Below, in pieces: positions 3,073 through 59,103 of a stretch of DNA of 64,000 nucleotides. Each line of letters starts with the position of its first letter. The stretch's first letter is position 1. The stretch covers positions 96,001 through 160,000 of the forward strand of contig CAVPSB010000022.1 of assembly GCA_963708025.1 (NCBI GenBank), written 5' to 3'. Made by a program: the position numbers and the translations under genes. The stretch comes from an uncultured Candidatus Rokubacteria bacterium. Lineage in GTDB: Bacteria > Methylomirabilota > Methylomirabilia > Rokubacteriales > DASRDR01. The notes beneath the pieces are model-generated. The model was not told the origin of the DNA and ran no database searches. It saw only the letters and a program-made list of their open reading frames with translations.

Positions 3073-3115
3073 GCGGCCCCGCGGCGGGGACGAACGATCA
3101 ACGGGAGGGCGCGGC

Positions 3116-15773: not shown

Positions 15774-15796
15774 GCCCCTCCGTTCGGGACCTCCCG

Positions 15797-15883: not shown

Positions 15884-15920
15884 AGCCGGATCTGACTGCA
15901 TCACGTGCGCTCAGAGCCTC

Positions 15921-21650: not shown

Positions 21651-21819
21651 GGGGTCAGGGAGCGGCGTCCAGCACGCCGGGGACCGGGTCGATGGCGAAG
21701 CGCGCCGTGGACGCCCGAGGGCGCGGCCAGGACCACCGGCCGTCCTCGAAGCGCTTCCACCACGAGCGCCGTCCCCTCGACAAGGCGCTCGTTGCGGTAG
21801 TGGACGGCCGCCCGTCGTA

Positions 21820-23380: not shown

Positions 23381-23383
23381 GGG

Positions 23384-25529: not shown

Positions 25530-25600
25530 CACATCCCTCCGTCCTTCTCCCGCCGTGCCGTCACGGCAGGCTGTGCGTTGTCGCGTCGCAAGTCGCCGCC

Positions 25601-25629
25601 ATTCTACGGATTCCCCGGTGACAAGTCAA
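25601..25629 (-). promoter_or_regulatory. sigma70 promoter of recA (TTGACT-17-TAGAAT)
   Basis: Near-consensus hexamers with a 17-nt spacer, ~70 nt upstream of the recA start. Confidence 0.7.
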
Positions 25630-27795: not shown

Positions 27796-27802
27796 TTGGG
27801 TC

Positions 27803-27890
27803 CACCCCCACCCATTGACGGCCTTCGGCCTGTGGCGACCCCTCCCCACCAGTTGGACGGCCTTCGGCCTGTGGCGGGGGGAGGGGGGGC
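27803..27890. repeat. Repeat family C, copy 2 (two GACGGCCTTCGGCCTGTGGCG units)
   Basis: Identical 21-mers at 27817 and 27856; aligns with 15797..15883. Confidence 0.8.
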
Positions 27891-27949
27891 GCCCCGTAGT
27901 CCCCACGGGGTACGAGGTCGGCGGAACGAGTGGATTGACACCGGGCGTC

Positions 27950-31042: not shown

Positions 31043-31404
31043 CCGAGGAACTCGCGCATCTTGGCCAGGAGCGCCCGCGGGCTGAAGGGCTTGGTCACGT
31101 AGGCGTCGCAGCCGGCCTCCAGCGCCTTCACGTCGTCGCCGGAGAGCGCGTAGGAGGTCACCGCGATGATCGGGATCGCCCGGAGGGCGGGCTGCGCCTT
31201 GATCCGCCGGGTCGTCTCGTAGCCGTCGAGGCCGGGGAGCTGGATGTCCATCAGGATGAGATCGGGGCGCTCGCGCTCGGCGAGCGTGATACCCTCCTCG
31301 CCGGTGAGGGCCTCGATCATCTCGTAGCCGGCGGCGGTGAGGAGATCGCGCATGATGCGCCGGTTCTCCTCGTGGTCCTCGACGACCAGGATCCGCCGGC
31401 TCAC
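31039..31404 (-). CDS. Single-domain response regulator (DivK-like)
   Basis: ILVVEDH, PDLILMDIQLPGLDG, AVTSYA, GCDAYVTKP. Confidence 0.92.
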   Translation of the reverse strand: MSRRILVVEDHEENRRIMRDLLTAAGYEMIEALTGEEGITLAERERPDLILMDIQLPGLDGYETTRRIKAQPALRAIPIIAVTSYALSGDDVKALEAGCDAYVTKPFSPRALLAKMREFLG

Positions 31405-34400
31405 GAGCTGCCCGCCTGGCGCTCGACGCGCACCGGCACCGTGACCGTGAACGTCGAGCCGCGCCCCGGCGCCGAGTCCACCGCGAGGCGGCCGCCGTGC
31501 AGCTCGACGATGCGCCGCGCGATGGAGAGCCCGAGGCCGGTGCCGCCCTTCTTGCGCGTCGCGGAGCTGTCGGCCTGCTGGAACTCCTCGAAGATCCGGG
31601 GCTGGTCGGCCGGCGCGATGCCGGGGCCGGTGTCGGCGACCGCGACGACGAAGGCGCCGTCGCTCACGCGAGCGTCGATCCGCACCTCGCCCGCCTCGGT
31701 GAACTTCAGCGCGTTGCCGACCAGGTTCAGGAGCACCTGGGTGAGCCGCCGCTCGTCGCCGCGGCCACGCGGAAGATCCGGGGCGACGGCGGCCTTCAGC
31801 GCGAGCTTCTTCTCGGCCGCCAGGGACTCCACCGCGGTGACGACCGTGTGGACCACCTCCTTCATCGAGTAGTCCCCGAGCGTGAGCACGAGCTGGCCGG
31901 CCTCGATCTTGGAGAGATCCAGGACGTCGTTGATCAAGCCCAGCAGGTGCCGCCCGCTCCTGTCTACCCGCTCCATGACCTCGGCGATCTTCGGGGGCAC
32001 CTCGCCGTAGATCCGGTCCTGGATCAGCTCGGTGTAGCCGAGGATGGCGTTCAGCGGGGTGCGCAGCTCGTGGCTCATGTTGGCCAGGAACTGAGACTTG
32101 TGACGGCTGGCCACCTCGAGCTGGCGGCCTTTCTCCTCGATCTCGCGGAACAGCCGGGCGTTCTGGATGGCCAGCGCCGACTGGGTGGCAAAGGTCTTGA
32201 GCAGCTCCACGACCTCGGGGGCGAACTCCCCGGGCACTCGCCGGTTCACCACGAGCGCGCCGATGACCTGGTCTTCCCGCACCAGCGGCACCGCCAGCAG
32301 CGCCCGGAAGCCCATCCGGAGCACCATGTCCCGGAGTCGGCTCTGGTAGGCGCCCTCCCGGGTGATGTCGGGCACCTGGATCGGCTCCCGCCGCTCGGCG
32401 GCGCGCCCCATGAGGCTCTCGCCCATCCGGAGCGGGATGGCCCGGAGGCTCTCGACGAGCTCCGGGTCGTAGTTGTGGGTCGCGCGCATCGGGAACTCGC
32501 GGGTGGCGTCGTCGTACTCGTGGATCGAGGCGCCATCGGCCCCCGCGAGCTGGGCGGCCCGCGACACGATCGTGCTCAGCACCGTTTCGAGGTCCAGCGT
32601 CGAGCTGACCGCCTGTCCAACCTCACCGAGAGCACGCAACTCCTCCACCGAGCGGGTCAGCTCGCGTGTCCGCGTCTGCAGCTCGGTGAACAGCCGGACG
32701 TTCTCGATGGCGATGACCGCCTGGGCGGTGAACGTCTTCAGCAGCTCCACCTCCGCATCGGAGAACAGGCCAGGCGTCTGCCGGGTGACGACGATGGCGC
32801 CTACGGCTTCGCCCGCGGACAGCATCGGGACGGCAACGCAGCTGCGGAATCCGAGCAGGTGCCCGGCTTCCCGCACGGTCGCGGTTACCGACGGATCCTC
32901 GACGTCCGGAATCTGAACGGGCGCCCGCGCCAGGATCGCGCTTCCCGGCGCGGTGTCCGGGCCGACCGGCCGGGGATACAGCGCCCGAGTGGCGGCCAGG
33001 GCCTCGGGGGCGCCGCCGTAGTTTGCGGGATGGTACAGCATCCCCCGCTCGACTCGAAACACCGCGGCGTTGGCGGCGTTGCAGAGGCGTGCCGCGCTCT
33101 GCACGATCGTGTCGAGGACCGGCTGGGCGTCGGTGTGGGCGCTGCTGATGACGCGCAGGATCTCGCTCGTCGCCGTCTGCTGGTCGAGCGCCTGGGTGAG
33201 GTCGCGATTCCGCACCTCCAGCTCCTGGAAGAGCCGCACGTTCTCGATGGCGATCACCGCCTGGTCGGCGAAGGTCTGGAGCAGCGAAATCTGCTGGTCG
33301 CGGAACGGCCCCGACTCCCGCCGGTAGATGACGATCGCCCCGATTGCGGTGCCGCCGCGGAGGATCGGCACCGCCAGCAGGCTTCGAATTTCCGCGCGCG
33401 TGGCTAGGGGACTCGGATTGTACTCCGGATCCAGCGCGACGTCGGGGATCTGGACGACCGAGCCGCTCAGGATCGCCCGACCTGAGATGCGAGCGCGGGT
33501 CGGGCGCGTCGGGTACTCCGTCCGGACCTGTTCCAGCCACATCTGGGAGAGGTTGTAGTGCGCCACGAGATGCATGAGATCGCCGTCGAAGCTGAACACG
33601 GCCCCGTGCCGCGCGTCGCACAATCGCACCGCGCTCTCCATGATCACGTTGAAGACCGGCTGGAGGTCGGTCGGCGAGCTGGAGATGACCCGCAGGATCT
33701 CGGCCGTCGCCGTCTGCTGCTCCAGGGCCTCGGTCAGCTCGCGGTTCCGCGCCTGCAGCTCCTGGAACAGGCGCACGTTCTCGATGGCGATCACCGCCTG
33801 GTCGGCGAATGTGCTCAGCAGCGCGACCAGGCTCGGCTCGAACGACCCGGCGACGGAGCGACCCACCGCGATCGCGCCGATCGGTACCCCATCGCGGAGC
33901 ATCGGAACGGCCACGATGCTGTGCATGCCGAGCGGATCGGCCATCTCCCGGTTCCGAAACTCGGGATCCGCTGCGCGTCCGCGACGTTCACGACCTCGCG
34001 ATCGAGAATCGCCCGCATGCCGACCAGGCCGCGATGGGGCGGGGCCGGGAAAGCTGCGCTCGAAGCGCTCGACCATCCACCCGGGAATGTTGTACGACCC
34101 GGCGAGATGCACCAGGCCGTTCTCGACCCGGTAGATGGCAGCCGAACAGTCCCGAGCAGAGCTTGGTCGCGCTGGCCGCGATCGTCTCGAACACCGGTCG
34201 CACGTCAGTCGGCGAGCGAGAGATGACCCGCAGGATCTCGGCCGTCGCCGTCTGCTGCTCCAGCGCCTCGGTCAGGTCGCGGTTTCGCGCCTCGAGCTCC
34301 TGGAAGAGCCGCACGTTCTCGATCGCGATCACGGCCTGGTCGGCGAAGGTTTCGAGCAGCTTGACCTGTGGGTCCGTGAACGGGCGAACTCTCGGCTCGC

Positions 34401-37400
34401 CGGATCCCGATCGCCCCGACCGCCGCGCCCTCCCGAAGCAGGGGAACCGCGAGGAATGTCCGGTAGCCCAGCCGCCGCGCAATCGCGCTGCCGTCCGGGA
34501 ACTCCGTGGCCTCGGACTGCGCGTCGAGGACGTGGATGGTCCGCCGATCCAGCACGGCGCGGCCAGTCACGTAGCCGCGCTCGATCGGGAGACCCCTCTC
34601 GCGGAAGAGCTCCGACGTCACTGGAATGGACCCGTGGTGCGCCACGGCGCGCAGAACCGCACCGTCCACCCGGAGGATCGTGGCATCGACCGCGTCGCAC
34701 AGTCGGGCCGATGTTCGGGCGACCGCCTCGAGCACGGGCTCCAGATGTCCGTGCGACCGCATCGAGCACGGGCTCCAGGTCCGTCGGCGAGCGACTGATG
34801 ACCCGAAGGATCTCGCTGGTCGCCGTCTGCTGCTCCAGGGCCTCGGTCAGCTCGCGGTTCCGGGTCTGGAGCTCCTGGAACAAGCGGACGTTCTCGACGG
34901 CGAGAACCGCCTGCGCGGCGAAGGTCTCGAGGAGCGAAACCTGCCCGTCGGAGAAGGGCCTCACCTCCGTCCGGACGACCGCGATGACACCGAGGGGCAC
35001 ATCCTCGCGCAGCAGAGGGACCGCGAGCATCGTGCGATGCCCGTAGCGGCGCTGCAAGTCCTTGCCCACCGGGAACTCGTCGTCGGACTCCGACGCCAGG
35101 TCGCGAATGTGAAGCGTGCGTCGGTCCACGACCGCCCGACCAGCCACCGACCCGCGAACCATCGGGAACTGCTGATCAGGCCGTATTGTCTCGGCGAACG
35201 GGCCGACGCTCGCGACGCGCCGGAGGGCGTCACCATCGACACGGAGGATGATGACGTTCGGAGCCTCGCACAGCCGCGCGGCGTTGTCGGCCACGGCGTC
35301 GAAGACGGGCTGGAGGTCGGTCGGTGAGCTGGAGATGACCCGCAGGATCTCGGCCGTCGCCGTCTGCTGCTCCAGGGCCTCGGTCAGCTCGCGGTTCCGG
35401 GCCTGCAGTTCCTGGAAGAGCCGCACGTTCTCGATGGCGATCACGGCCTGGTCGGCGAAGGTCTCGAGCAGCTTCATCTGCTTGTCGGAGAACAGCCCGG
35501 GCTCGTCCCGGCGGATCGTGATCGTCCCGATCCCCTCGCCCTTCCTCAGGAGCGGGGCGGCTAGCACGGCCCGGTGGCTGGTGTGCCTCGCCAGCCGCAG
35601 CGCATCCGGAAACTCGTCCCCGGCGGCGCCGACCTCCGGGACGTGGACCGTCACCCGGTCCAGCACGGCCCGGCCCGAGGGCACGCCACGACTGAGTGGG
35701 AACTCGGTCGCCGGCAAGCGCCCGTATACCGCCATCGGCCGAAGGATGTCACCCTCGGACCGGTAGACCACGGCGTTGTCCACCCCGCAGAGGCGGGCCG
35801 CCTTCTCGGCCACGGCGTCCATGACCGGCTGGAGATCGGCCGGCGAGCTGGAGATGATCCGCAACACCTCGCTGGTCGCCGTCTGCTGCTCCAGCGCCTC
35901 GGTCAGCTCGCGGTTCCGGGCCTCGAGCTCCTGGAAGAGCCGCACGTTCTCGATGGCGATCACCGCTTGGGTGGCCAAGGTCTGCATGAGGCCGATCTGA
36001 CGGTCCGTGAAGAGACAGCACCTCGGCCGGCGGTACACGGAGATGGCGCCGACGAGCCGCCCGTCCTTCAGGAGCGGCACCATGAGCAGCGTTCGCATGC
36101 CTTCGAGCTCGATGACGCTCGACGCGCGGATCGCCCTCGCCGAACGCCGCGTCTACAAGCACGTCGTCGATGTGCATCGGGCGGAGCTCCCGGAGAACCC
36201 GGCCCAGCGCCGTGCTGCGGCCCCGGTCGGTGGGTGGCGCTCGTGGTGCTCGACGAGTGCCGACGCGGTGCCCCGAAACGCGGCGGCGTGGTAGACCTCA
36301 CCGTCGAAGAGGAACACGCGCCGCTGCTGTGCCTCGCACAATCGCGTGGCGTTGTCGACGATCGTCTCAAACACGGGCTCGACATCGATCGGCGAGCGGC
36401 TGATGACGCGCAGGATCTTCGCCGTCGCCGTCTGCTGCTCCAGGGCCTCGGTCAGCTCGCGGTTGCGGGACCCGAGCTCCTGGAAGAGCCGCACGTTCTC
36501 GATGGCGATCACCGCCTGGGCGGCGAAGGTCCGGAGCAGCGCGATCTGCTTGTCCCCGAACGGGCCGACGTCGGCGCGCCAGACTGTTATCGCACCGATC
36601 GGCGTCTCGTCGCGCAGCATCGGCACGGACAGCGCGCTGCGAAAGCCGGCAGCTCGGATCAAGACGTGGGGCTCGTACTCGTGATCCGCCTCGATGTCCG
36701 GGACGTGCACGACGGCACGCTCCAGGATCGCCCGTCCGGTGAACCGGCCGCGACCGGGGCGCGTCGGGAACAACTGCCGCGATGCCTCGATCGCTTCGCG
36801 AGGATAGTTGAAGTCGGCGACCATGTGGATCAGCTCGCCGTCGAATCGATACACGGAGCCGAACAGCGCGCCGCAGAGCCGGACCGCCCGCTCGGCGATC
36901 GCGTCGAAGACGGGCTGGAGATCCGTCGGCGAGCGGCTGATGACGTCCAGGATCTCGGCCGTCGCCGTCTGCTGTTCCAGCGCCTCGGTCAGCTCGCGAT
37001 TCCGGGCCTGGAGCTCCTGGAAGAGCCTGGCGTTCACGATGGCGATCACCGCCTGGTCGGCGAAGATCTCGAGAAGCTTGATCTGCTTGTCGGTGAAGGG
37101 CTCGGGGACGACCCGGCGGATCGTGATCGTCCCGACCGCCTCGCCCTTCCTCAGGAGGGGCGCGGCCAGAATGGCGCGACGGCCATAGCGTTTCACGAAC
37201 TGCACCGAATCCGGATACTCGTCCTCGGCCGCGGCAATATCGGGGACGTGAATGGTCTGACGGTCGAGCGCCGCCCGGCCCGAGGGCACACCCCGACTGA
37301 GCGGGAGATCGGAGGCCGGAAACCGCCCGTACACCGCCATCGGCCGAAGGATGTCACCCTCGGACCGATACACCACGGCATTGTCCACACTGCAGAGACG

Positions 37401-38671
37401 GGCCGCTCGCTCGGCCACGGCGTCCATGACCGGCTGCAGATCGGCCGGTGAGCCGGAGATGATCCGCAACACCTCGCCGGTCGCCGTCTGCTGCTCCAGG
37501 GCCTCGGTCAGCTCGCGGTTGCGCGCCCCGAGCGCCTGGAAGAGGCGCACGTTCTCGATCGCGATCACCGCCTGGGCGGCGAAGGTCTGGACCAGCTCGA
37601 TCTGCTTCGCCGAGAAAGGGCGGACCACCATGCGGCGGATCACCAGGGCGCCGATCGCGGCTCCCTCCCGAAGCAGCGGCACCACCAGCACCGTCCGGAT
37701 CCCGTGGCGCTCGACGGGGCTCCAGGCCTCGGGATACTCGTGAGCACCATCTGTCAGGAAGTCGTGGATGTGGATCGTCTCGCCCGTCAGGATGGCGCGA
37801 CCGCTCGCGGAGCGAGGCGTGATCGGCCGCGTCTCTCCGCGCTCGAGGCCGCTGATGCCCTGGCTGGCCACGTTCTGCATGACATCGTGCTCGGCGCGGT
37901 AGAGCGAGACGTCGGTGGCCTCGCAGAGACGCATCGCGCTCGCCACCACCGCTTCGAACACCGGCTGGACGTCGGTCGGCGAGCTGCTGATGACCTCGTA
38001 GGATCTCGCTCGTCGCCGTCTGCTGCTCCAGGGCCTCGCTCAGCTCGCGGTTGCGGGCCTGGCTCTCCTGGAACAGCCGGACGTTCTCGATCGCGATCAC
38101 CGCCTGGGCGGCGAAGGTCTCCAGGAGCGCGATCTGCCGGTCCGAGAACGGCCGCACCGTGCGACGCCAGACGCTGATCGCGCCGATCGGCTCGCCGTCC
38201 CGGAGCATGGGGACGGAGAGCAGTGTCCGGTAGCCGGCGAGCGTCCGGATCGCGCAGGGAGCCGGTATTCGGGATCGGCCCGGACGTCGTGGATGTGGGC
38301 GGGGCGGCGGTCCAGGATCGCCCGACCGTTGGCGCTCCTCCGGTCGGCCGGGAACGGGAAGACGTGCCGCCGCAGGGTGTCCACCTCGTCGGGGGAAATG
38401 TTGTAATGACGCGTCCAGCGTGATGAGCCCGTTGTTCGAACCGGTGCACCCCGGCGAAGGCCGCGTCGCACAGCCGGGTGGCGCTCTCGGCGATCGAGTC
38501 GAACACCGGCTGGACGTCGCTCCGGGAGCCCGCGATGACGCGGAGGATCTCGGCGGTGGCGCGCTCGCGCTCGAGCGCCTCGGCGAGCTGGCGGCGGACG
38601 CCGGCGCCGGCGCGCCCGGGGGGCGCGGGCTTCCGGGAGGAGGAGCGTGGAGGCTTGCGTCGGTCCGGCAC
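31401..38671 (-). CDS. Giant soluble histidine kinase with ~12 tandem GAF domains (~2400 aa; multiple frameshifts)
   Basis: Twelve repeats ending in variants of [45 protein letters not shown]-box; [23 protein letters not shown]; no TM segments. Confidence 0.9.
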
Positions 38672-38762
38672 GGGACTGGCCTCCTCGGGCGCACTCGGTC
38701 GGACGACATTCTACCCCACCGGACGGCGCCGACGGCACCGCCGGGCTACTGCGCGGCGGTCA

Positions 38763-39674: not shown

Positions 39675-40175
39675 CTATTCGGAGCGGTAGTTCGTGAACT
39701 GCGTCTCGATGCCCAGGTCCTTCTCGCGGACCAGCTTGATCACCGTCTGGAGGTCGTCCTTGTTCTTCCCGAACACCCGGACGTGATCCTCCTGGATCTG
39801 GGCCTGGACCTTCAGCTTCGCGTCCTTGATGAGGCGCACGATCTCCTTCGCCTTCTCCATCGGGATCCCCTGCTGGATGGCGATCCGCTGGCGCACGGTG
39901 CTGCCGCTGGCCGGCTCCACCTTGCCGTAGGAGAGCGCCTTGAGCGGCACCCCCCGCCGGTGGAGCTTCGACTGGAGGAGATCGATCACCTGCTTGAGGA
40001 CGTAGTCGTTGTCGGAATGGACGACGATCGCCTCTTTCTCGAGCGTGACCTCGCTCTTGGTCTGCTTGAGGTCGTAGCGCGTCTGGATCTCGCGGCTCGC
40101 CTGGTGGACGGCGTCGGTCACGGCCTGGGGATCGACCTTGCAGGCGACGTCGAAGGAGTTCTCGCCCTTGGCCAT
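39675..40175 (-). CDS. yajQ: YajQ family nucleotide/c-di-GMP-binding protein
   Basis: SFDV...RYDLK...QQGI...KLKVQAQIQ...[12 protein letters not shown]...QFTNYR. Confidence 0.92.
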
Positions 40176-40183
40176 CGGCGCGG

Positions 40184-40846
40184 CTACTGCACCACCACCG
40201 CGCCGGGCGGCGGGGTGAAGACGAAGAGCCGATCGGGGAGCCCCGCGTTCACGAGCGACGTCGAGAAAGGCGAGGCGGACCTCGTTGCCGAGCTCGTCGT
40301 ACAGGACCGCCTTCCGCACGAGCCAGCTCCGCGGGTCGACGGAGAGGACGAGCCGGGCCAGCAGGGGCTGCGGCGTTTTGGGCGTCAGGTTGAGGACCAC
40401 CAGGCCCTCGGCGTCGGCCGGCTGGGCCGGGTTCAGGAAGCGGACCTCGAACTGCTCGCGGAGCTGCCCCAGGCCCTGGAGGAAGCTGCCGGCCGGGCCG
40501 GCCAGGGCCTGGGGCGCGGCGGCCACGTTGACCTGCTTCAGCGCGGGCGTGTAGACCCAGAGCTTCTGGCCGTCCGAGACGATCTCCTGCGGCGTGGGCG
40601 TCGCGAACTCCCAGCGGAGCTTGCCGGGCTTCTTGAGGTAGAGCGTGCCCTTGGCCTCGGTGGTCTGGTTCATGGCGCGGTTGACGGCCGTCTGGCGGAA
40701 GTCGGCCTTGAGGTCGCGAAGCGCCCTGGTACGTCGTCTCGAGCCGCTGCACCGCCTCGTCGAGCGTCGGAGCGCGTGGAGGCGGCGGCCGACGCGCAGG
40801 CCGGCAGAGCGAGGAGGAGGACAAGGAGCCGGCGGAGGCCGGCCAC
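40184..40846 (-). CDS. lolA: Outer-membrane lipoprotein carrier LolA (frameshifted)
   Basis: Signal peptide; [14 protein letters not shown]...[17 protein letters not shown] at C-terminus; near ftsK. Confidence 0.85.
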
Positions 40847-40850
40847 GCGG

Positions 40851-42272: not shown

Positions 42273-44456
42273 TCAGCGGGGGGCGGCGCGGCGGGCCAGG
42301 TACTCGGGGCCGACCAGGATCTGGCGCGGCTTGGCGCCATCGCCCGGCCCGATGATGCGGTCCTGCTCCATCAGGTCGATGAAGCGGGCGGCCTTGGGGT
42401 AGCCGAGGCCGAGGCGGCGCTGGATGAAGCTGATCGACCCTTGCTTCTGGCTGATGACCAGCTCGACGGCGCGCCAGTAGTGGTCGTCGCGCTCGGCCTC
42501 GCTGGCGCCCTCCCCGCCGGGCGTCATGTCCTTGACGGGCTGGATCAGCCCCTCCTCGTAGACCGCCTGCCCCTGCTTCTTGAGGAACGCCGCGATCTCC
42601 CGGACCTCGCCCTCCGACACCCAGGCGCCGTGGATCCGTACCGGGCGCGACGAGGCGGGCGGGACGAACAGCATGTCGCCGCGGCCGAGGAGCTGCTCGG
42701 CGCCGTTCTGGTCGAGGATGGTCCGCGAGTCCACCTTGGAGGCGACCTGGAAGGCGATGCGGGCGGGAAAGTTCGCCTTGATGAGCCCGGTGATGACGTC
42801 CACCGACGGCCGCTGGGTGGCGATCATCAGGTGGATGCCGACCGCCCGGGCGATCTGGGCGAGCCGGGCCAGCGAGGTCTCGACCTCGCCGGCAGAGACC
42901 ATCATGAGGTCGGCCAGCTCGTCCACGATGACGATCCAGTAGGGCAGCCGCTCGGCGGGCTCGACCGCGCGATTGTACCCCTCGATGTTCCGCACCGACT
43001 TCGCGGCCAGGAGCTTGTAGCGCTCCTCCATCCGGCCGACGATCCAGCGGAGGCGGACGGCCGCCTCCTTGGCGTCGGTCACCACCGGCGACAGGAGGTG
43101 CGGGATCCCGTCGTACATGCCCAGCTCGAGCCGCTTGGGGTCGATCATGAGCAGGCGGACGTCGGACGGCGGGCACCGGTACAGGATCGAGCAGAGCATC
43201 GCGTTGAGGCCGGCCGACTTGCCGGCCCCGGTGGCGCCGGCGATCAGGAGGTGCGGCATCGCGGCGAGGTCGGTCACGTAGGGCTGGCCGATCGCGTCCT
43301 TGCCGAGGGCGAGGGCGAGCGGGGCCTTGGACTCCACGAACTCCTTCGAGACCAGGATCTCCCGCAGGTGGACCGTCGACGCCTCGGGGTTCGGGACCTC
43401 GATCGCCACCGTGCCCCGCCCGGGCACCGGGCCGAAGACCCGCACGGCCCCGGCCTTCATGGCCAGGGCCAGGTCGTCGGCCAGGTTCACCACCTGGTTG
43501 ACCTTGACCCCCGGCGCCGGCTCGAACTCGTAGCCGGTGATGATGGGACCGGGGTTCACCTGGACGATCCGCCCACTCACCCCGAAGTCCTCCAGGCGCT
43601 TGCGGAGCAGGTCGGCGTTCTGGGAGAGCTCCTCGCGCGTCCGCCGCCGCTCGGTGGCCGGCGCGGCCTTGAGGAGGCCGATCGGCGGAAGCTGGAAGGT
43701 CTGCCCCGCCCGGGCGAAGTCAAAGGTCTCCTGCCAGGAGAGGCCGCGCTCGGCGAGGCGGCCCTTCGCCCGCTCGCCCGTCGCGCCGGGCCGCGGAGCC
43801 GGGGCCATCGTCGGCGGCGGCTCGACGGCGCCCGCGATCGCGGGCGGCTCCGGCGCCGGCTCGACGATCGTCGTCGATGGCGCCGACTCCGGGCGGGCGC
43901 GCCGCCGCAACAGCCGCCGCAGCCGCACGAGCCCCCGCTGGCCGAGCCCCGCGTACGAGACCTGGGTCAGGCAGAGCGCCGCCACCGCCGCGATCGTGAG
44001 CAGGACGAGGACGCTCCCGAGGTCCCCGAGCGTGCCCCGCAGCGCCCCGTCGACGAGGCGCCCGAACAGGCCGCCCCGGTGGAGGTAGACGCCGCCGCTC
44101 ACGCCGGACACGCGGGCCAGGAGCCCGGTCAGGCCGACCAGCCCCAGGCCGACGCCGGCCAGCGTGAAGACGCCGGCGGCCGGAACGGGACGGACGAAGG
44201 CGGCGACCGCCCAGCCGGCGAGCGCGAGCGGCACCAGGTACCCGGCGTAGCCGACGGCGGTGAACAGGGCCCAGCCGATCCAGAGCCCGACGACGCCGAC
44301 CTGGGCCTCCTGGTCGAGCCAGTGGAGCGCCGGGTCGTAGGAGAGGAGCGCCAGGAAGACGTAGACGCCCACGCCGAAGGCGACGACCGCTTGCGCTTCG
44401 CGCACCCAGCGGAGCGTCGGCCTGGAAGCAGCTCTGGCTCGCGCCTTCGCCATCAT
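42273..44456 (-). CDS. ftsK: DNA translocase FtsK
   Basis: Four N-terminal TMs, MPHLLIAGATGAGKS, IVDELADLM, ATQRPSVDVITG, gamma domain. Confidence 0.96.
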   Translation of the reverse strand: MMAKARARAASRPTLRWVREAQAVVAFGVGVYVFLALLSYDPALHWLDQEAQVGVVGLWIGWALFTAVGYAGYLVPLALAGWAVAAFVRPVPAAGVFTLAGVGLGLVGLTGLLARVSGVSGGVYLHRGGLFGRLVDGALRGTLGDLGSVLVLLTIAAVAALCLTQVSYAGLGQRGLVRLRRLLRRRARPESAPSTTIVEPAPEPPAIAGAVEPPPTMAPAPRPGATGERAKGRLAERGLSWQETFDFARAGQTFQLPPIGLLKAAPATERRRTREELSQNADLLRKRLEDFGVSGRIVQVNPGPIITGYEFEPAPGVKVNQVVNLADDLALAMKAGAVRVFGPVPGRGTVAIEVPNPEASTVHLREILVSKEFVESKAPLALALGKDAIGQPYVTDLAAMPHLLIAGATGAGKSAGLNAMLCSILYRCPPSDVRLLMIDPKRLELGMYDGIPHLLSPVVTDAKEAAVRLRWIVGRMEERYKLLAAKSVRNIEGYNRAVEPAERLPYWIVIVDELADLMMVSAGEVETSLARLAQIARAVGIHLMIATQRPSVDVITGLIKANFPARIAFQVASKVDSRTILDQNGAEQLLGRGDMLFVPPASSRPVRIHGAWVSEGEVREIAAFLKKQGQAVYEEGLIQPVKDMTPGGEGASEAERDDHYWRAVELVISQKQGSISFIQRRLGLGYPKAARFIDLMEQDRIIGPGDGAKPRQILVGPEYLARRAAPR

Positions 44457-44514
44457 CCAACAGGGGGGGGAGTCCCAACTACTCCTCCCCCTGAACCCCC
44501 CCCATCTGGGGGTC
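44451..44514. repeat. Family A short copy (both ends kept, central hairpin missing); supplies the ftsK ATG
   Basis: CATCATCCAACAGGGGGGGGAGTCCCAAC...CCCCCTGAACCCCCCCCATCTGGGGGTC matches both ends of the 54511..54629 copy. Confidence 0.8.
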
Positions 44515-44540
44515 TACCGCGCCAATATCGCCCATACCTA

Positions 44541-46266: not shown

Positions 46267-47091
46267 TCACGCGGCCTCGGACGCCACGAAGAAGTGGGCG
46301 AGTCGGGCAAACTCCGGCAGGCTCAGCGTCTCCGCGCGCCGGCGCCCGTCGATCCCCGCCGCCGTCAGACCGGCCTCCACCCCCGCCGCGCCGAGCCCGG
46401 GAAAGCCGGCCCGGAGCGCGTTGGCCAGCGTCTTCCGGCGCTGGGCGAACCCCGCCTTCACGACCCGGACGAAGGCCGCCGGATCGGCGATCGGCACCGG
46501 GGGCGTTGCGTGAAAGACGGCGCGCACGACCGCGGACTCGACCTTCGGCGGCGGGCGGAAGGCCCGGGCCGGCACGACGAAGAGCAGCGCCAGCTCCGCC
46601 CACGCCTGCCAGAGCACGGACAGGACCCCGTAGGCCTTGCCACCGGGCGGCGCGACGAGCCGCTCGGCGACCTCGCGCTGGAGCATCACGGTCGCCGCGT
46701 CGAGCGTGCCCCGCGCCTCCCAGAGCCGGAAGAGGATGGGCTTGGAGGCGCTGTACGGCAGGTTGCCGACGACGAGGACCCGGCCCCCGGGGCTCGGACG
46801 GAGGTCCCGGAGCGTCTCGTAGGGGAAGGTCCGGGCGTCGGCGAGGCGCGGGTCCACGCCCGGCCAGCCCTCGCCCCGGGCCGCCAGCCGCGCGTGGAGC
46901 GCGGGGTCCAGCTCGAGGGCGACGACGTGGCCGGCGCGCCCGGCGAAGAGCTCGGTCAGGACCCCGTACCCCGCGCCGATCTCGCAGACCAGGTCGGCCG
47001 CCGTCGCGCCGACGGCCTCCACGATGCGGCCCGCCACGACCGGATCGGCCAGGAAGTGCTGGCCCAGCGCGCGCCGGTCGGACGCCTTCAC
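46267..47091 (-). CDS. rsmA: 16S rRNA dimethyltransferase RsmA/KsgA
   Basis: [45 protein letters not shown]. Confidence 0.94.
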
Positions 47092-47718
47092 CCTCGCCTC
47101 GCGCGGTGCTCGGCCAGCAGGGCCGCGTGCACCGCCCTCACCTGGGCCGCCGTCTCCTCGGGGCCGTCCGAGTTGTCGATGACGTAGTGGGCCTGCTTGA
47201 CCTTCTCCGCCAGCGGCATCTGGCTCGCGATGCGCCGCTCGGCCTCGGCGGCGTCCAGCCCATCCCGTCGCATCAGGCGGTCGCGCTGCGCGGCCGGCTC
47301 GGCATAGACCACGATCACCCGATCGACGTCGGCGTGGGCGCCCACCTCGATCAGGAGCGCCGCGTCCTGGACGACGATCCCGTCGAAGCCGCGGGCCGCC
47401 AGCTCCTCGAGCGCGGCGGCGCGCCGCCGCCGGATCGCTGGATGCGTGATCTCCTCCAGCGCGCCGGCGCTTCCCGGGATCGGCGAAGATCAGGGCGCCG
47501 AGGCGGGCGCGGTCGAGGCTCCCGTCCGGCTGGAGGATCTCGGGCCCGAATGCCTCGACGATCGCCTGCAGGGCCGGCTCGCCCGGCGCCACCACTTCGC
47601 GAGCCAGCACGTCGGCGTCGATCACGTGGCAGCCCAGCTCGGCGAGCTGCCGGCTCACCGTGGACTTGCCGGAGGCGATCCCCCCGGTCAGCCCCACGAG
47701 CAGGAACGGCCGCGCCAC
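47088..47718 (-). CDS. coaE: Dephospho-CoA kinase (frameshift ~47465)
   Basis: [28 protein letters not shown]. Confidence 0.93.
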
Positions 47719-48572
47719 TAGCGCGCTACGTCCAGCCGGAACTCGCCGCGGGCGACGACGACCGCCGTGCCACCGACCTCCACCTTCGTCGCCTGCTCGC
47801 GCGAGCCCTCGACCCTGGCGAAGAGCGTGCTGGGCCGGCCGACCTCGGCGCCCTGGCTGATCTCGATCTCCTCGCCGAAGCCGATCCGCCCGTGGCGGGC
47901 CAGGTGCCAGGCCAGCGGTCCCGCCGCCGAGCCGGTGGCCGGGTCCTCGGGGATCCCGTGGCCCGGGACGAACGCCCGGGCCTTCCAGCGCCGCCCGGCG
48001 CCGGCCACGCAGTTGGTGATCATGCCCCCCAGCCGCGCCAGCGCGGCGAAATCCGGCTGGAGCCCCGCCACCGCCGCCTCGCCGGCCAGCGTCACGTAGA
48101 CGTGCCGCGGGCCGTTGGTGTAGAGCTCGACCGGGAGCTCCGACCGCTCGACGCCGAGCGCGGCGAGGAGCGCCGGCACGGCGGCGTACGGCTCGACGGT
48201 GGGGAGGGGCTGGCGCATCCGGCCGAAGACGATCCGGGCACCTTCGCGCTCCAGCGTCACCGGCACCAGGCCGGCGCCGGTCTCGAGGACGATCTCGGGG
48301 AGCTGGAGCGGTGCGGCCAGGACGAACGCCGCGCCGAGGACCGGGTGCCCAGCGAACGGCAGCTCGCTCCCGGGCGTGAAGATGCGGATCCGCACGTGGC
48401 CCCCCCGCCCGGGCGGATAGACGAAGACGGTCTCGGAGAAGTTGACCTCCCGGGCGAGCGGCTGGAGCAGCGCCTCGGGGATGCCCCGGGCGTCCGTGAA
48501 GACCGCGAGCTGGTTCCCGGCCAGCGGCCGGTCGGTGAAGACATCGCAGACGACGTAGCGGAAGTCGGTCAT
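47718..48572 (-). CDS. PhzF family isomerase
   Basis: [43 protein letters not shown]. Confidence 0.92.
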
Positions 48573-48591: not shown

Positions 48592-48698
48592 CTAGTGGCG
48601 TTCCAACTTGTTCCAGCTAGTGCTTTCGATCCATGCGGCAAGTCCGTGCTTCAAGAATCGCTTGCCCATTTTGGCTCATGTAGTTGGAACGGCACTAG
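48592..48698. mobile_element. 107-bp MITE-like element, copy 2 (inverted relative to copy 1)
   Basis: Reverse complement matches 1781..1887 with 9 substitutions by manual alignment; CTAG at both ends. Confidence 0.85.
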
Positions 48699-49255
48699 CC
48701 GAGGAGCTCGCCGACGGACAGGATCAGGTCGGGAAAGGCCGCGGGGGCGACGGTGTCGCCGCGCGCGAGTCGCTGGAGGTCGCGATAGCGGTCGCCGACG
48801 GGCACACGGTGGGTGTCCACCCGTTCGTTCACGAGATCGACGATCCAGAACTCCGGGATCCCGGCGGCGGCGTAGGCGGGCAGCTTCACCTGGCGGTCAT
48901 ACGCAAGCGAAGCGTCGGAGACCTCGATGAGGAGCAGGACGTCGCCCGGGGCCGGATCGGCGTCCCGATACGCGGCGCGAGGTGGCCGAACGAGCAGCAG
49001 ATCGGGCTGGTACTCTGTCCGAGGTCCGAGGCGAATCGAGGCCTGCGGCAGGAGCAGCGCGCGGCCGCTGAGCCTCGGAGCAAGCCACTCGGCGAGGAAC
49101 CCGACGCAGAGGGCGTGTCGGCGTCCGATGGGCGTCATGTGGACGATCTCCCCGTCGACCAGCTCGACGCGCGGCTCGGCGAGGAAGAGTCCCGCCTCGG
49201 CCATCCGGTAGAACTCCTCTACCGTGAAGCGGTGCTTCGCCAGCTCGACCTGCAT
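48695..49255 (-). CDS. Uma2 family (DUF820) putative endonuclease
   Basis: HRFTVEEFYRM, VELVDG, QPDL, LLIEVSD.SL.YDR.VK..YA..GIPEFWIVDL. Confidence 0.92.
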   Translation of the reverse strand: MQVELAKHRFTVEEFYRMAEAGLFLAEPRVELVDGEIVHMTPIGRRHALCVGFLAEWLAPRLSGRALLLPQASIRLGPRTEYQPDLLLVRPPRAAYRDADPAPGDVLLLIEVSDASLAYDRQVKLPAYAAAGIPEFWIVDLVNERVDTHRVPVGDRYRDLQRLARGDTVAPAAFPDLILSVGELLG

Positions 49256-49332
49256 GCGGCCTCCCGATGGCGATTCTACACGAGGACTTGCACGCTTCCT
49301 ACTTCATCAGCGCCCCTTCACGTCATCCCGAG

Positions 49333-52093
49333 TCACACCTCGGCCCAGTCGCGGCCTTCCTTGACGTCCACGCGCAGCGGCACGTCGAGCGTCATCACCG
49401 ACTCCATGATCTCGAGCACGAGCGGCCGGACCACCGCGCGCTCGTCCTCCGGCACCTCGAGGAGCAGCTCGTCGTGGACCTGGAGCAGGATGCGGGTCCG
49501 GAGCCCACGCTCGGCCAGCGCGCCGGCCAGCTTCACCATCGCGAGCTTGATGATGTCCGACGCCGTCCCCTGGATCGGCGCGTTCGAGGCCATCCGCTCC
49601 GCGCCCATCCGGGCCGGGACGTTCCGGGCGGCCAGCTCCGGCAGGTAGCGGCGCCGGCCGAGAAGGGTCGTCACGTAGCCCTTCTCGCGCCCCTCGGCGA
49701 CCGTGCGGTCGATGTACGCGCGTACCTTCGGGTGGGCCGCGAAGTAGGCCTCGATGTACCGCTGGGCGGCGGCGCGGTCGATGCTGGCCGCCTGGGCGAG
49801 CCCGAAGCCCGAGATGCCGTAGAGGATGCCGAAGTTGACGACCTTGGCGAGCCGCCGCATCTCCGGGGTGACCTGCTCGGGCGGGACGTGGAGGATGTCG
49901 GCCGCGGTGCGGGTGTGGATGTCCTCGTCCCGGCGGAAGGCCTCGAGCAGCGCCTCCTCGCCCGAGAGGTGGGCGAAGATCCGGAGCTCGATCTGCGAGT
50001 AGTCGGCGGCCAGGAAGTGCCAGCCGTCTTCCGGGATGAACGCCTGTCGGATGCGGCGCCCCAGCTCCGTGCGGATGGGGATGTTCTGAAGGTTGGGCTG
50101 GCTGCTCGAGAGCCTCCCCGTCGCCGCCACGAGCTGGTTGAACGAGGTGTGGATCCGCCCGGTCCGCGGGTTGATCAGCACGGGCAGCGCGTCGGCGTAC
50201 GTGCCCTTGAGCTTGGCGAGCTGGCGGTACTCGAGGATCTTCTGGGGGAGCGGGTGGCCCAGGGCCAGCTCCTCCAGCACGTCGACGTCGGTCGAGTAGC
50301 CGGTCTTGGTCCGCTTGATCGGCGGCAGCTTGAGCTTCTCGAACAGCACCACCGCGAGCTGCTTCGGCGAGTTCGGGTTCACGTCCTCGCCGGCCAGATG
50401 GTGGATCTCCTTCAGCAAGGCGTCGAGCTGGCGCTCCAGCTCCTTGGCCAGGAGCTCGAGCCGCTCGGGGGCGACCCGGATCCCCACCGTCTCCATCGCC
50501 GCCAGCACCGGGATCAGCGGCACCTCCAGGTCCCGGTAGAGCCGGACGAGGCCGTCCCGCTCGAGGAGCGGGCGCTGCCAGTCCCAGAGCCGCCACACCC
50601 CCTCGGCGCGGGCGCCAGCCCAGGCGGCGAGCAGTGCGGGATCGGCCTCCGCCGGCGAGCGGCCCTCGAGGAGCCCGGCGAGCGGGCCGGGGGGCTCCTG
50701 GCCGACGGCCTCCAGGCAGAGCTGCTCGAGCGGGTACCCCGCTCGGCCCGAGTTCAGCAGGTACGCCGCCACCGCGGTGTCGTCGATCCGCTCCGGCGGA
50801 ACCCGGACCCCCTGCCCCAGTGCCACCTCGACGAGCGCCTTCACGTCGTGGCCAATCAGCCGGCCGGCCTCGAGCCCGGGGAGCCCGGCCGCGTAGGCCG
50901 GGCCGGCGGCCGGGCTGTAGCCGCCCAGGCCCACGAGCGTCTGGTCGGGCGGGCTGCCGCCGAGCACGGCCTCGACGGCGACGGCCTCCCCGGCCCGCCC
51001 ACGCCACGCGCGCCAGCCGGCCGCGTCCAGGCACGGCACCCCGAGCGACGGGACGGTGACCGCGCGGGCCGGGAGCTGGCGAAGGAGGTTCGAGAACTCC
51101 AGCTCGGTCCAGAGCGCGCGGAGGCGCTCCCAGTCGGGGTCGCGGACGCGGAACCGCTCGAGGTCGATCTCGACCGGGACCTTCGCCTCGAGCACCGCGA
51201 GCTGGCGCGAGAAGAACGCCTGGTCGCGGTACCGGGCGAGCGTCTCGCGGAGCTTGGTCCCGGAGACGAGCGTCAGGTTCTCGTAAACCGCCTCCAGGCT
51301 CCCGAACTGCTTCAGGAGCTTCTGGGCGGTGACCTCGCCGACCCCGGGGACGCCGGGGATGTTGTCGATCGAGTCGCCCATGAGGCCGAGGATGTCGGGG
51401 ATCCGCTCGGGCGGGACGCCCCAGCGCTCCTGGACCTTGGCGGCGTCGTAGAGGATGCGCTCGCCGGTCCGGCCCAGCACGGACAGCACCGTCACCTTCG
51501 GCCCCACGAGCTGGAGGGCGTCCTTGTCGGCGGTGACCAGGACCAGCTCGACGGCCCGGTCGGCGAGCCGGTCGACGGCGGTGGCCAGGATGTCGTCCGC
51601 CTCGAACCCCGACACCTCGAGGACCGGCGGCCCCAGGATGTCGAGACTCTTCCGGATCCACGGGATCTGCTCGACCAGGTCCCGCGGCATCCCCGGCCGC
51701 TGGATCTTGTAGGCCTCGAACTGCTGGTGGCGGAAGGTCGGCCCCGGAGCGTCCCAGGCCACCGCCATGTAGGTGGGCCGCTCCTCGCGGAGCATCTTCC
51801 ACAGCATCATCGTCATCCCGAGCGTCGCGTTGGTCGGGACGCCGCGCGAGGTCGAGAGGTGACCGATCGCGTGGTAGGCGCGGTAGAGATACGACGGCCC
51901 GTCGACCAGGTAGAGCTGCTCGGCCTTCTCGGGCTTCTCGGACTTGCCGACGGGGGGGGAGTCCCAACCACCGGATCGCCCGGACGCCTCGGGCCTGCGG
52001 CCCTCGGGACGTCCGGCCCTCCCGGTGGTCCCCCCGAACGCCCCCACCTGGGCCGTTCGTCGCGTGTGCCGAGGGTGACGCTCGCCGGTTCAT
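49333..52093 (-). CDS. polA: DNA polymerase I (N-terminal extension derived from a family A repeat; start 52093 or 52047)
   Basis: LYLVDG...YRAYHA, EADD, GDSIDNIPGVPGVG, TGRLSS..PNLQNIP, DYSQIELR, KVVNFGILYG, QVHDEL. Confidence 0.96.
51947..52052. repeat. Palindromic repeat family A, copy at the polA 5' end
   Basis: GGGGGGGGAGTCCCAACCACCGGATCGCC-CGGACG-CCTC-GGGCC-TGC-GGCCC-TCGGGA-CGTCCG...CCCCCACCTGG. Confidence 0.88.
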
Positions 52094-55000
52094 CACGCCT
52101 TCCCCACGACGTCGAGGTAGTGCCGGCGGACCTCGCCGCTGACCTCGCGATAGCGCTCGACCAGCGCCCGCCCGCTCGGCAGCCCCAGCTCGCGGGCGAG
52201 CCGGGCCAGGAGATGCCCGGCGGCCGGCAGGCAGTCGGGCGGCCGGGCCTGGGCGAGCCGGAGCAGGCGGAGCAGGCCCTTCTCGAAATCGTACGCCTCG
52301 ACGAGAGCCCGGGCCGCCTCCGCTCCCAGGAAGCCGCGCTCGGCCAGCGCCCGGAGGGCGCGCCGGGTGGAGGGCGTCCGGAGGGCGCCATGGCGCGCGC
52401 CGTGGGTGAGCTGGAGGACCTGGGTGAGGAACTCGATGTCGACCAGCCCGCCGGCTCCGAACTTCAGGTGCAGGCGCCCGGGGCCTTCGCGGCCCAGCTC
52501 GAGCTCCATTCGCGTCCGCACCCGGTGGATCTCGGCGCGCTCGGCGTCGGAGAGCCCCGGCTCGAAGACGTGGGCCCGGCGGAGGGTCGCGAACCGCCGG
52601 GCGAGTCGCGGGTCCCCGAGGACCGGCCGCGCCTTGACCAGCGCCTGGCGCTCCCAGAGCATCGCCTCCTTCTCGAGGTAGCTCGACAGCGACGCCAGCG
52701 AGTGGCCGAGGCTCGTGCCCTTCCCGCCCTGCCGGAGGCGGAGGTCCACGCGGAAGGCCTGGCCCGTCCGCGTGATGGTCGTCAGCAGGAGATGGAGCCG
52801 CTCCACGAGCTGATCGAAGTAGACGGAGGCCGGCACGCGGTCGGGTCCGCGCGTCTGGCCATCGACGCCGTAGAGCACCACCAGGTCCAGGTCCGAGCCG
52901 TAGTCCAGCTCGCGCCCGCCCAGCTTGCCCATGCCGACGACGAGGGACGGGACGCGCACGCCGCCGGCTTCGGGCTCGCCGAACCGGTGGATCGCCACCG
53001 CCTCGGCCCAGTCCCACGCGATGCCGAGGCAGGCCCCGGCCAGCTCGGTCAGCGCCCAGGCCACCCGCGGCGCCGGCAGCGCGCCCACCACGTCCTGCCA
53101 GGCGATGCGCAGCTCCTCGGCGTGCTTGAAGAGCCGGAGCCGGTCGGCCGGCTCCGGCCCCGCCGCCGGCGCGGCCTCGAAGGCCGCCCGCAGCCGGCTC
53201 GCGGTGTGCTGGCGGCCGAGCGTCTGGACGTCGGCCAGGCGGTCCAGCAGCTCGGGGCGGTTGATGAGCGACTGCGCGAACCGGTCGGAGCGCGCGAACA
53301 GCGTGAGCACGCGCTCGAGGAGCACCGGCTCCCGGGCGAGCCGGGCCAGGTACGCCGTCCGCGGCCCGGCCGCCGCGACGAAGCGCTCCAGCGCGTTCAG
53401 CGCCGCATCCGGGTCGGGAACGCCCCGGAGCGCCGCCAGGACCGCCGGGAGGAGCGCCGCCAGCACCCGGCGGACCGCCTGGGGGGCCGGCACCAGGGGC
53501 GGCCCCTCCCAGAGGAGGCGGAGGTTCTGCCGGGCGCGCTCGGGATCGGCGAACCCGACGGCGGCGAGAGCCTCGGCATCCCAGGGCGGCGGCCCGGGCT
53601 CGCGGGAGGGCGGCGCGGCGAAGAACTGCTCGAAGGCCGCGCGGACCCGGGTGCGGGTCGCGTCGTAGTCGGCGAAGAAGCGGGCGCGCGCCGCGGCCCG
53701 GTCCCCCGCGTAGCCGAGTCGGCGGGCGAGCTTCCCCAGCTCGTCGGGATCGGCAGGCAGCGTGTGGGTCTGGAGCGCGTGGAGGAGCTGCAGCCGGTGC
53801 TCGACCGTGCGGAGGAAGACGTAGGCCCGGGCCAGCGCCCCCGACTCCTCCCAGGAGACGTAGCCCCGCTCGGCCAGGCGGTGGAGCACCCGCAGGCTGT
53901 TGCGCTCCTGGAGCCACGGGTCCTGGGCGCCGTAGAGGAGCTGGAGCGCCTGGACGTGGAACTCGATGTCGCGGATCCCGCCCACGCCGAGCTTCACGTG
54001 GCGCTCCTGGCTCCCGCGGGCCCGCAGGGAGCGGTCGATGCGGGCCTTCACCGCCTGGATCTCGCCGAGCGCCTCGCGCTCGAACCCCGGCCGGTACGCG
54101 AGCGTGCGGGCCAGGTCGAGGAAGGCGCGGCCCAGGGGCTCGTCGCCGGCCGCGACGCGCGCCTTGATCAGCGCCTGGCGCTCCCACAGGGCGCCCCGCG
54201 TCTCGTGGTACTGCCGGTAGCCGTCGAGGGGAAGCGCGAGCGCGCCGCCGGTGCCTTCCGGCCGCAGCCGGAGGTCGACCCGGAAGACGGTCCCCTCCTC
54301 CGTCATCTCGGTCAGCACCGCCAGCAGCCGCTCGGCGACCCGCGCGAAGAAGACCCGGTTCGGCGTGCTCTCGGGGCCGTCGGTCTCCCCCTCCGCCTCG
54401 TAGACGAAGCAGAGGTCGACGTCGGAGGAGTAGTTGAGCTCTTCTCCACCGAGCTTGCCCAGCGCGATGACCGCGAACGCGGTGGGGACAGGCTGAGAGT
54501 CCGACGTGCGACCCCCAGGTGGGGGGGGTCCAGGGGGGGACCCCCGGAGGGGCCGGACGCACCGAGGGCCACAGGCCCGAGGCGTCCGGGCGAATCGGTG
54601 GTTGGGACTCCCCCCCCTGTCGGATGATGCCTGGGCACACCGTAGCGCTCGATCAGGCCGGGCCGGACGATCTCCCACGCCTGCTGGAGGCACGCGTCGG
54701 CCAGGTTGGACAGCTCCTGCGTCGTCGTGACGAGATCGGCATCGCCCAGCATGTCGCGCAGCCCGATCCGGCAGAACTCCCGGCGCTTGACGCGGCGAAG
54801 CGCGTTGGCCCGCGCCTCCTCGGTCCGGAACGGGCGAACGGCGGCGGCGATCTCCTCGTGCATGCCCTCCCGGGGCCGGGGCCGCATGACCCGCGGATCG
54901 AGGAGCCAGGGCAAGAGCTGCGGGGTCCGCACGAGCGTGTCGGCCAGGAACTGGCTGCCCGCGGCCAGGGTGACGACGACCGCCATCGCCTGGGGGTGAT

Positions 55001-55295
55001 CGCGGAGCTGGGTATAGAGGAGCCCTCGGTCCATGACCGCGACGGCCAGGCGCTCGAGGTTGTTGAGGGCCATGTCGGGGTCGGCGGAGGCTCCGAGCTG
55101 GCGGAGGAGCCGGGGCAGGATCGCGGCCAGCAGCTCCGCCTGGCGGGGGGTCTCGGCCAGGCGCCGGACGTTGCGGAGGGCGCCGGCCGGGTCGCCGAAG
55201 CCCAGCGCCTCGAGGGCGGGCAGGCAGGCGGTCTCGGGAACGCTGGGATCGAGGAGGTCGGTGGAGGGCGGGAGCAGCTGCGTCTCGGAAGACAT
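52093..55295 (-). CDS. glnE: Bifunctional glutamine synthetase adenylyltransferase/deadenylase (repeat insertion and 1-nt frameshift ~54510-54630)
   Basis: Two nucleotidyltransferase domains, GKLGGEELNYSSDVD and GKLGGRELDYGSDLD; VDLRLR; WERQALIKAR; KLG.GGIRDIEF. Confidence 0.93.
54511..54629. repeat. Palindromic repeat family A, copy inside the glnE coding sequence (opposite orientation to the other copies)
   Basis: Reverse complement aligns with 51947..52052 and 20045..20147; lies between RYGVP and the AFAVIALGKLGG motif. Confidence 0.88.
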
Positions 55296-57341: not shown

Positions 57342-57402
57342 TCGAGCCGCGGCTTCGCCGCGGCCTCCGCGGGGGGGCCTCGGGGGGCTTCCGAGCCCCG
57401 AT
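57342..57402. repeat. Palindromic repeat family B (full)
   Basis: CGA-GCCGCGGC-TTC-GCCGCGGC...GGGGGGGCCTCGGGGGGCTTCCGAGCCCCG. Confidence 0.75.
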
Positions 57403-59031: not shown

Positions 59032-59103
59032 GATCCTTCGGGGGGGTCTCGGAAGACCCCCCCGATGCCCCCCCGCCGGGGCGGCGGCGAGGCCGCCGCT
59101 CGG
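59032..59103. repeat. Palindromic repeat family B (full, inverted)
   Basis: CGGGGGGGTCTCGGAAGACCCCCCCG hairpin plus GCGGCGGC-GAG-GCCGCCGC hairpin. Confidence 0.8.

Follow-up and report, generated by a model that had tools for sequence, protein, structure and literature searches.

An orientation-biased intergenic hairpin repeat of Rokubacteria, occasionally trapped within genes such as glnE

A GC-rich hairpin repeat is present in four copies in the stretch of DNA analyzed here (the window), which comprises 64,000 nucleotides of the 258-kb contig CAVPSB010000022.1 (positions 96,001 to 160,000 of the forward strand) from the assembly GCA_963708025.1 of an uncultured Candidatus Rokubacteria bacterium, and one of these copies lies inside the coding sequence of glnE. 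We show that the repeat family is mostly intergenic and orientation-biased, and that it is occasionally trapped in a tolerant loop of a protein. When the copies of the window and those of other genomes are taken together (n = 19), 16 are intergenic, two lie inside genes (glnE and a cytochrome c gene at a locus designated L012), and one overlaps the start of polA. As assembled, the two parts of glnE on either side of the repeat are one base out of frame, and on balance we attribute this offset to an assembly indel at, or close to, one of the three G/C runs of 7-8 nt that the repeat contains. The family appears to be undescribed, being an interspersed hairpin repeat, which is itself a known kind of element: searches of the window, the glnE site and four of the other loci against Rfam, at gathering as well as permissive thresholds, returned no relevant family, and no publication on repeats in Rokubacteria or Methylomirabilota was found, judging from titles and the openings of abstracts.

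The repeat family and its genomic setting

Members of the family in other genomes were collected by searching a 19-base motif of the repeat against one genome per species, which gave 15 copies at 13 loci; these and the four window copies make up the 19 copies counted above. Nine of the loci are labeled as metagenome-assembled genomes of Rokubacteria, Rokuibacteriota or Methylomirabilota, three as "uncultured bacterium", and one as "uncultured Actinomycetes". A short form of the repeat is present at all 13 loci. It is a core of ~50 nt that is nearly invariant while the G+C content of the loci ranges from 62 to 74%, and it consists of a pair of neighboring hairpins, one having a 12-bp stem and a 7-nt loop and the other a 7-bp stem, which are built from one G7-8 run and two C7-8 runs. 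This short form is predicted to fold with -41 to -43 kcal/mol (z-scores of -4.2 and -4.9), and none of 200 shuffled sequences folded as well. The long form, which accounts for three of the four window copies, is a palindrome of ~105-120 nt with 32 predicted pairs, and differs from the short form by an extra nested hairpin of ~55 nt in the first loop; the long copies are equal in length between the homopolymer runs. Compensatory changes among the three long copies preserve two of the 32 predicted pairs, both in the copy starting at 20047, and the folding energy of the long form is unexceptional when compared with shuffled sequences (z-scores of -1.7 and -0.6).

The three window copies outside glnE are all on the plus strand. 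A long copy at 51947-52052 (87% identity over 110 nt) occupies the spacer between the stop of glnE (52093) and polA, another at 20047-20147 (86% over 103 nt, with the two compensatory stem changes) lies between tldD and pmbA, and the single short copy, at 44451-44515, is located in the spacer between the stop of the RNase J gene and the start of ftsK, whose ATG follows the C-run by 6 nt on the gene strand. The names of the genes around the window copies are Pfam assignments. An nhmmer search with a profile of the short form detected no additional copies in the window. The homopolymer runs are 8/7/8 nt long in the glnE copy and 7/7/7 (the copy at 20047), 8/6/5 and 8/5/8 in the others.

The orientation of the repeat is strongly biased. 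At 12 of the 13 loci, the exception being L008, the flanking genes are encoded in the direction in which the repeat reads C-run...G7...G7...C7, and the three intergenic window copies are likewise co-oriented with their flanking genes; the total of 15 out of 16 corresponds to a binomial chance of about 3 in 10,000. The repeat also tends to precede start codons. In at least eight copies (those of L001, L002, L004 (twice), L006, L007 and L009, and the ftsK copy) an ATG is found 6-10 nt past the last C-run, as read by eye from the locus sequences, and in several of them the sequence past the ATG resembles, again by eye, the expected N-terminus of the downstream gene. Read on the downstream gene's strand, the first hairpin presents a Shine-Dalgarno-like purine run and, in its loop, a TTG codon that opens a mini-frame (Gly-Leu-Pro-Pro...), which stops within ten codons in 13 of the 15 short copies, often at or beside the downstream ATG. 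The arrangement of this mini-frame in L001-L013 and at window positions 44451-44515 resembles a translational-coupling leader. The possibility that the repeat marks a regulon was considered and rejected, as the downstream genes are functionally unrelated (polA, ftsK, pmbA, and genes for a glutamine amidotransferase, an enoyl-CoA hydratase, ABC ATPases and a radical-SAM enzyme, among others).

The copy upstream of polA (49333-52047) overlaps the start of that gene. No start codon is present between the repeat and the 5'-3' exonuclease domain, and the first in-frame start is a GTG at 52047, inside the repeat, which would add ~34 repeat-encoded residues to the protein. If the adjacent 8-nt run were shorter by one base, both the TTG of the loop and an ATG that overlaps the glnE stop would fall into the polA frame.

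Direct duplications of flanking sequence are found at three of the 13 loci: 27 nt with four mismatches at L003 (region of about 2400-2560), 34 nt at L004 (2400-2700) and 25 nt with one mismatch at L013 (about 2420-2560). For each of them, none of 100 shuffles reached the score. In L003 and L013 it is the upstream gene whose 3' end recurs on the far side of the repeat. Tandem copies are present in L004 and L010, the remaining copies being mostly single. These duplications and tandem copies mark real insertion or duplication events, but give no indication of a target duplication of fixed length. A direct-repeat search detected no flanking duplications at any of the four window copies, and no transposase of the RAYT or insertion sequence (IS) type is present among the window open reading frames (ORFs) scanned with Pfam.

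An in-frame copy in a cytochrome c gene

The short-form copy of L012 lies within a single uninterrupted frame of 765 codons, in the linker separating two cytochrome c domains; the frame (765 residues) is open up to the locus end. Among 1.84 billion representative proteins, a profile-free search identified P0124 (752 aa), which aligns across both halves of the L012 protein (60% identity, query residues 7-760), and P0125 and P0127 are likewise full-length homologs that cover both halves in one alignment. The linker of the L012 protein is ~17 residues longer than those of the homologs, exactly at the position of the repeat. Judging from these alignments, the L012 copy is a genuine in-frame intragenic copy, which means that invasion of proteins by this repeat does happen, though as an exception. 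A first-pass annotation of the window, made from the sequence alone, had described the glnE copy as a protein-invading element like the Rickettsia palindromic elements (RPEs), and had named the absence of other in-frame coding copies as a finding that would count against this. The L012 copy is another in-frame coding copy of this kind, and the description nevertheless overstates the habit of a family that is intergenic in 16 of its 19 copies. Because the glnE and L012 copies are oppositely oriented to their genes, different frames of the repeat are read in the two. Two peptide searches for further in-frame insertions, each limited by protein length, yielded no other protein: the element peptide of L012 (residues 240-300) had no matches among proteins of 420-1339 aa, and that of the N-terminal glnE frame (residues 226-276 of P0001, the 327-residue product of the source gene call) matched only P0001 itself among proteins of 179-573 aa.

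The copy inside glnE

The glnE gene is encoded on the minus strand, and Pfam assigns both of its pieces to the GlnE family. The N-terminal frame (ORF 54312..55295) reads ...LIERYGVPR, continues into a Gly/Pro-rich peptide and terminates at a stop at 54312, and the C-terminal frame (ORF 52093..54693) carries ...PTAFAVIALGKLGG, followed by ~800 residues up to the natural end of GlnE. The distance between the PR and PT codons that bound the loop is 143 nt (54487..54629), made up of native remnants and the inserted repeat; it is 18 nt in the closest orthologs, and thus ~125 extra bases are present in the first nucleotidyltransferase domain. Since 143 mod 3 equals 2, the two frames are offset by one base, as the first-pass annotation had noticed.

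The part of the loop that is clearly similar to the other window copies, a long form with its forward motif on the glnE sense strand, spans 54510..54629 on the minus strand. The first homopolymer, G8 on the sense strand (54610..54617), belongs to the 5' arm of the outer stem, the second, C7 (54533..54539), to the 3' arm, and the third, C8 (54521..54528), to the second small hairpin; the extra nested hairpin that is absent from the ~50-nt short form lies approximately at 54545..54598, as read off the alignment of the long copies. The insert had originally been placed at 54511..54629. The repeat is indeed found there, and similarity to copies in other genomes suggests that the inserted DNA reaches slightly further, to about 54490-54510. 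Also in agreement with the original description, the 143-nt stretch is free of stops in all three sense frames (two of the three antisense frames have one stop each), and the N-terminal glnE frame reads exactly the Gly/Pro-rich peptide that had been quoted. It should be noted that stop-free frames are weak evidence at 75% G+C.

GlnE homologs were taken from the 120 listed matches of a protein search with the C-terminal glnE piece. The closest among them, P0003 (1025 aa), has an identity of ~97% on either flank of the insert: in the N-terminal part (54630..55295, up to the PR codons) the first 222 residues show six mismatches, counted by eye, and some 216 are the same, and in the C-terminal part (52093..54486, from the PT codons to the stop) 775 of 797 residues agree. 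At the insertion site P0003 reads RYGVPR-QGPDHR-PTAFAV, with six codons between PR and PT, the corresponding stretch of the window being 47 codons and two bases long, and further close orthologs read RHGxxxx-PT. None of the 120 listed homologs carries the insert, and a single 6-mer shared with any sense-frame translation of the insert occurs, at any position, in only two of them. The absence of the insert from a 97% identical relative implies that the insertion is recent.

The annotation had assigned the insertion to a variable loop, and this is what the homologs indicate, the length of the loop ranging from 0 to 27 residues across 117 near-full-length GlnE proteins. In an AlphaFold2 model of P0003 (alignment of 37 sequences, mean pLDDT, a per-residue confidence score, of 88.7) the loop is a turn between a strand at 221-223 and a strand at 232-237, directly before the GKLGG motif. 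Taken from the homologs and the predicted structure, the insertion site in GlnE is one that tolerates changes in length.

Origin of the one-base offset in glnE

In the sequence of events that we favor, a copy of a lineage-specific interspersed hairpin repeat of Rokubacteria/Methylomirabilota, which normally resides in short spacers at gene boundaries in one orientation, has inserted into glnE at the turn that leads into the GKLGG strand of GlnE's first nucleotidyltransferase domain; the family would be spread by some trans-acting mechanism that at times duplicates 22-34 nt of the target. Because the repeat is GC-rich and free of stops, translation can pass through a copy that lies in a loop or linker tolerant of it, adding a Gly/Pro-rich peptide, and L012 is an example. 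The offset of one base in the assembled sequence is, on this account, an error in or near one of the homopolymer runs, an explanation that we hold to be probable, if only by a modest measure. The true glnE would then have gained 41 or 42 codons in frame and would presumably be functional. Runs of 7/7/7, as in the copy at 20047, would give a loop of 141 nt that is in frame, and one added base would likewise restore the frame. The ranking of the explanations balances an expectation, that intragenic copies which survive will tend to be in frame, against the error rates of the contig.

That the offset is a sequencing error had already been suspected in the first-pass annotation, and further frame breaks elsewhere on the contig support the suspicion. 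In coaE (47091-47799, minus) the Pfam model is matched from 2 to 80 in one frame and from 81 to 176 in another, and one more base is needed near 47490. In tldD (20204-22229, minus) the frame shifts near 20850, apparently through one extra base. Both breaks are probable assembly indels. In recA (23103-25625) an intein of ~350 residues is present at 23789-24845 (minus), with the junctions VMFG|C and HN|S; this ~1-kb insertion has at least four frame changes, an in-frame TGA at 23868 and a 4-nt tandem duplication at its start junction, and a Pfam scan of one of its frames named no intein domain. As coaE is normally essential and recA is near-universal, at least some of these frame breaks are assembly errors. 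The gene for a multi-GAF histidine kinase (about 31400-38700, minus) consists of 11-13 units of ~537 nt and has an interrupted frame, with three of 11 unit spacings (538, 575 and 532 nt) not being multiples of three; it is either mis-assembled or broken. Finally, the Pfam match of an HhH-GPD gene (2393-3156, minus) begins at model position 36, right after a 7-nt run at 2848-2854, and what looks like its missing N-terminus is found upstream in the other frame, which points to a probable frame break at this G/C run; the upstream frame taken alone had no Pfam match.

Several observations weigh against an assembly error within the repeat. The breaks in coaE and tldD are at sites without long homopolymers, and it is therefore not guaranteed that an error on this contig would fall inside the 143 nt. 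Three other coding runs of 7-8 nt (at 7990, 48400 and 57930) are inside intact domains, so that three of four such runs are unbroken. The sequence does not single out a miscalled run, if there is one; the G8 and C8 of glnE recur in the ftsK-side copy. The glnE copy has the minority orientation relative to its own gene, the two length-limited peptide searches found no second protein with the element, and a search for flanking repeats detected no target duplication above chance at glnE, leaving the exact ends of the insert uncertain by about 12 nt.

Some of these points also lend weight to a real frameshift, by which the repeat would have knocked out or truncated glnE, leaving a 229-residue stub with an out-of-frame tail and, at best, a C-terminal product from an internal start. 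The frames do differ by one base as assembled, the source gene call is the 327-residue stub P0001, two out of three random insertion lengths put a gene out of frame, and loss of glnE is tolerated in many bacteria. In addition, since the insert is missing from a 97% identical relative, a young knockout that has not yet been purged is plausible. However, no second lesion is present over the 3.2 kb of glnE, the breaks in coaE and recA make frame breaks on this contig poor evidence of gene death, and the insert itself has three runs of 7-8 nt, another such run on the contig coinciding with the probable break in the HhH-GPD gene. We regard a real frameshift as rather unlikely.

Another explanation is that the frame is switchable, either through the G8/C8 runs acting as a contingency tract or through a -1 ribosomal or transcriptional slip, with full-length GlnE being produced part of the time. 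A -1 event would join the frames exactly, the 143 nt being read as 48 codons; a slip at the C8 run (54521..54528), for instance, would lead from the N-terminal into the C-terminal frame. Moreover, stable hairpins come after the runs G GGG GGA and C CCC CCC, which the sense strand presents in the N-terminal frame, and tract lengths vary by one base among the copies. Despite these slippery-like runs and hairpins, the insert is missing from every one of the listed orthologs, and hence there is no conserved recoding signal; the tracts are generic to all copies of the repeat, intergenic ones included, and slippage at G/C runs of 7-8 nt is not known from this phylum. We consider a switchable frame improbable. 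Translational bypassing, known from the byp elements and T4 gene 60, was likewise considered and rejected, as the glnE site has no matched pair of take-off and landing codons and no stop after a take-off site.

It could also be argued that the insert itself is an artefact, with the repeat misplaced into glnE or two strains joined at the repeat. The contig has many local errors, which cluster in repeats and in the probably strain-variable intein, and the insert is seen in no listed homolog. Nevertheless, the equal identity of ~97% of both glnE flanks to P0003 argues against a join of two strains, the glnE copy bears substitutions of its own relative to the other three window copies, and the in-frame copy inside the L012 gene comes from an independent assembly. 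This explanation is accordingly very improbable.

Discussion

The repeat has likenesses to several known classes of elements. With repetitive extragenic palindromic (REP) sequences and their bacterial interspersed mosaic elements (BIMEs), REP doublets forming hairpins (REPINs), and MITEs (miniature transposable elements with inverted repeats) such as the enterobacterial repetitive intergenic consensus (ERIC) and Correia elements, it shares being a short, structured, multi-copy and mostly extragenic palindrome: 16 of the 19 copies are intergenic, and four copies are present in 64 kb. Composite "long" forms produced by an internal insertion, as in the present family, are known for ERIC too. Elements of this kind are described as having occasional intragenic copies that carry open frames (PMC10969869). 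The family appears to differ from them in lacking a fixed-length target duplication and classical terminal inverted repeats that match a known IS.

Mycobacterial interspersed repetitive units (MIRUs) are portrayed in PMC3184786 as GC-rich elements of 40-100 nt with internal inverted repeats, which lie in operon spacers and are co-transcribed, and whose small ORFs overlap the neighboring genes at their ends. The repeat studied here is similar in its location, in its orientation (co-oriented at 12 of 13 loci) and, in several loci, in a potential small frame that ends near the downstream start. By contrast, MIRUs are mostly arranged in tandem arrays with tetranucleotide direct repeats and the present copies are mostly single; the flank duplications seen here are, in a comparison by description, long and variable (22-34 nt). 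By analogy with MIRUs, a role in operon coupling could be envisaged. Overall, the family appears closer to MIRUs in location, orientation and potential overlapping frame, and closer to REP/MITE-type elements in structure.

RPEs are described as palindromic repeats of roughly 100-150 nt that can be located inside conserved genes and be read as an extra peptide at a tolerant site (PMC10969869, PMC3184786), and nearly half of those of R. conorii are reported in ORFs, each encoding a conserved peptide (PMC10969869). The glnE case is alike in outcome only, in that a ~100-150-nt palindrome sits in a conserved gene and is readable as peptide at a tolerant site. It differs in that only two of 19 copies are intragenic, of which that in L012 is in frame and that in glnE, in the present assembly, is not, and in that these two have opposite orientations. 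The host phylum is also another one and the G+C content here is ~75%, the two groups being compared by description and not by sequence; the difference in phylum and G+C content makes homology to RPEs unlikely, and the relation is one of analogy only.

These observations have several implications. A strongly conserved repeat family, with a marked strand bias and a habit of preceding start codons, is present in an uncultured phylum, and it shows repeat DNA turned into protein outside Rickettsia, cleanly in L012 and probably in glnE. Furthermore, split genes on this contig, such as glnE, coaE, tldD and recA, should not be read as gene loss without checks at the level of reads, and the repeat may be useful for typing strains and as a pointer to assembly problems in these genomes. 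More speculatively, the ~50-nt double hairpin might go beyond selfish DNA and be a portable gene-expression piece for Rokubacteria operons, which, through its purine run, its loop TTG and the mini-frame that stops at or beside the next start, couples or gates translation of the downstream gene, and whose G/C runs turn intragenic copies such as that in glnE into a reversible on/off or frame switch; we give this idea a low likelihood.

Additional observations

Other small repeats are present in the window. A second set of G7/C7 hairpins, at 59040-59074, 8350-8385 and 57371-57400, adjoins gene boundaries and is arranged in the same way (a G-run, a small loop, a C-run, four bases and another C-run), with a different loop sequence. 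A MITE-like element of 107 nt occurs at 1781-1887 and 48592-48698; its two copies are 92% identical, mutually inverted and less GC-rich, and have perfect terminal inverted repeats of ~16 nt, and the second copy abuts a gene of the Uma2 family (48698-49303). A third small family, at 15795-15887 and 27802-27893, has a ~38-nt unit that contains a short GC hairpin and is repeated in tandem as a pair, with a G-rich run after each pair. Lastly, one stop-free frame at 39678-40850 (minus) holds both LolA (residues 45-200) and DUF520/YajQ (residues 231-389), which may reflect a fusion, a lost stop or an assembly fault.

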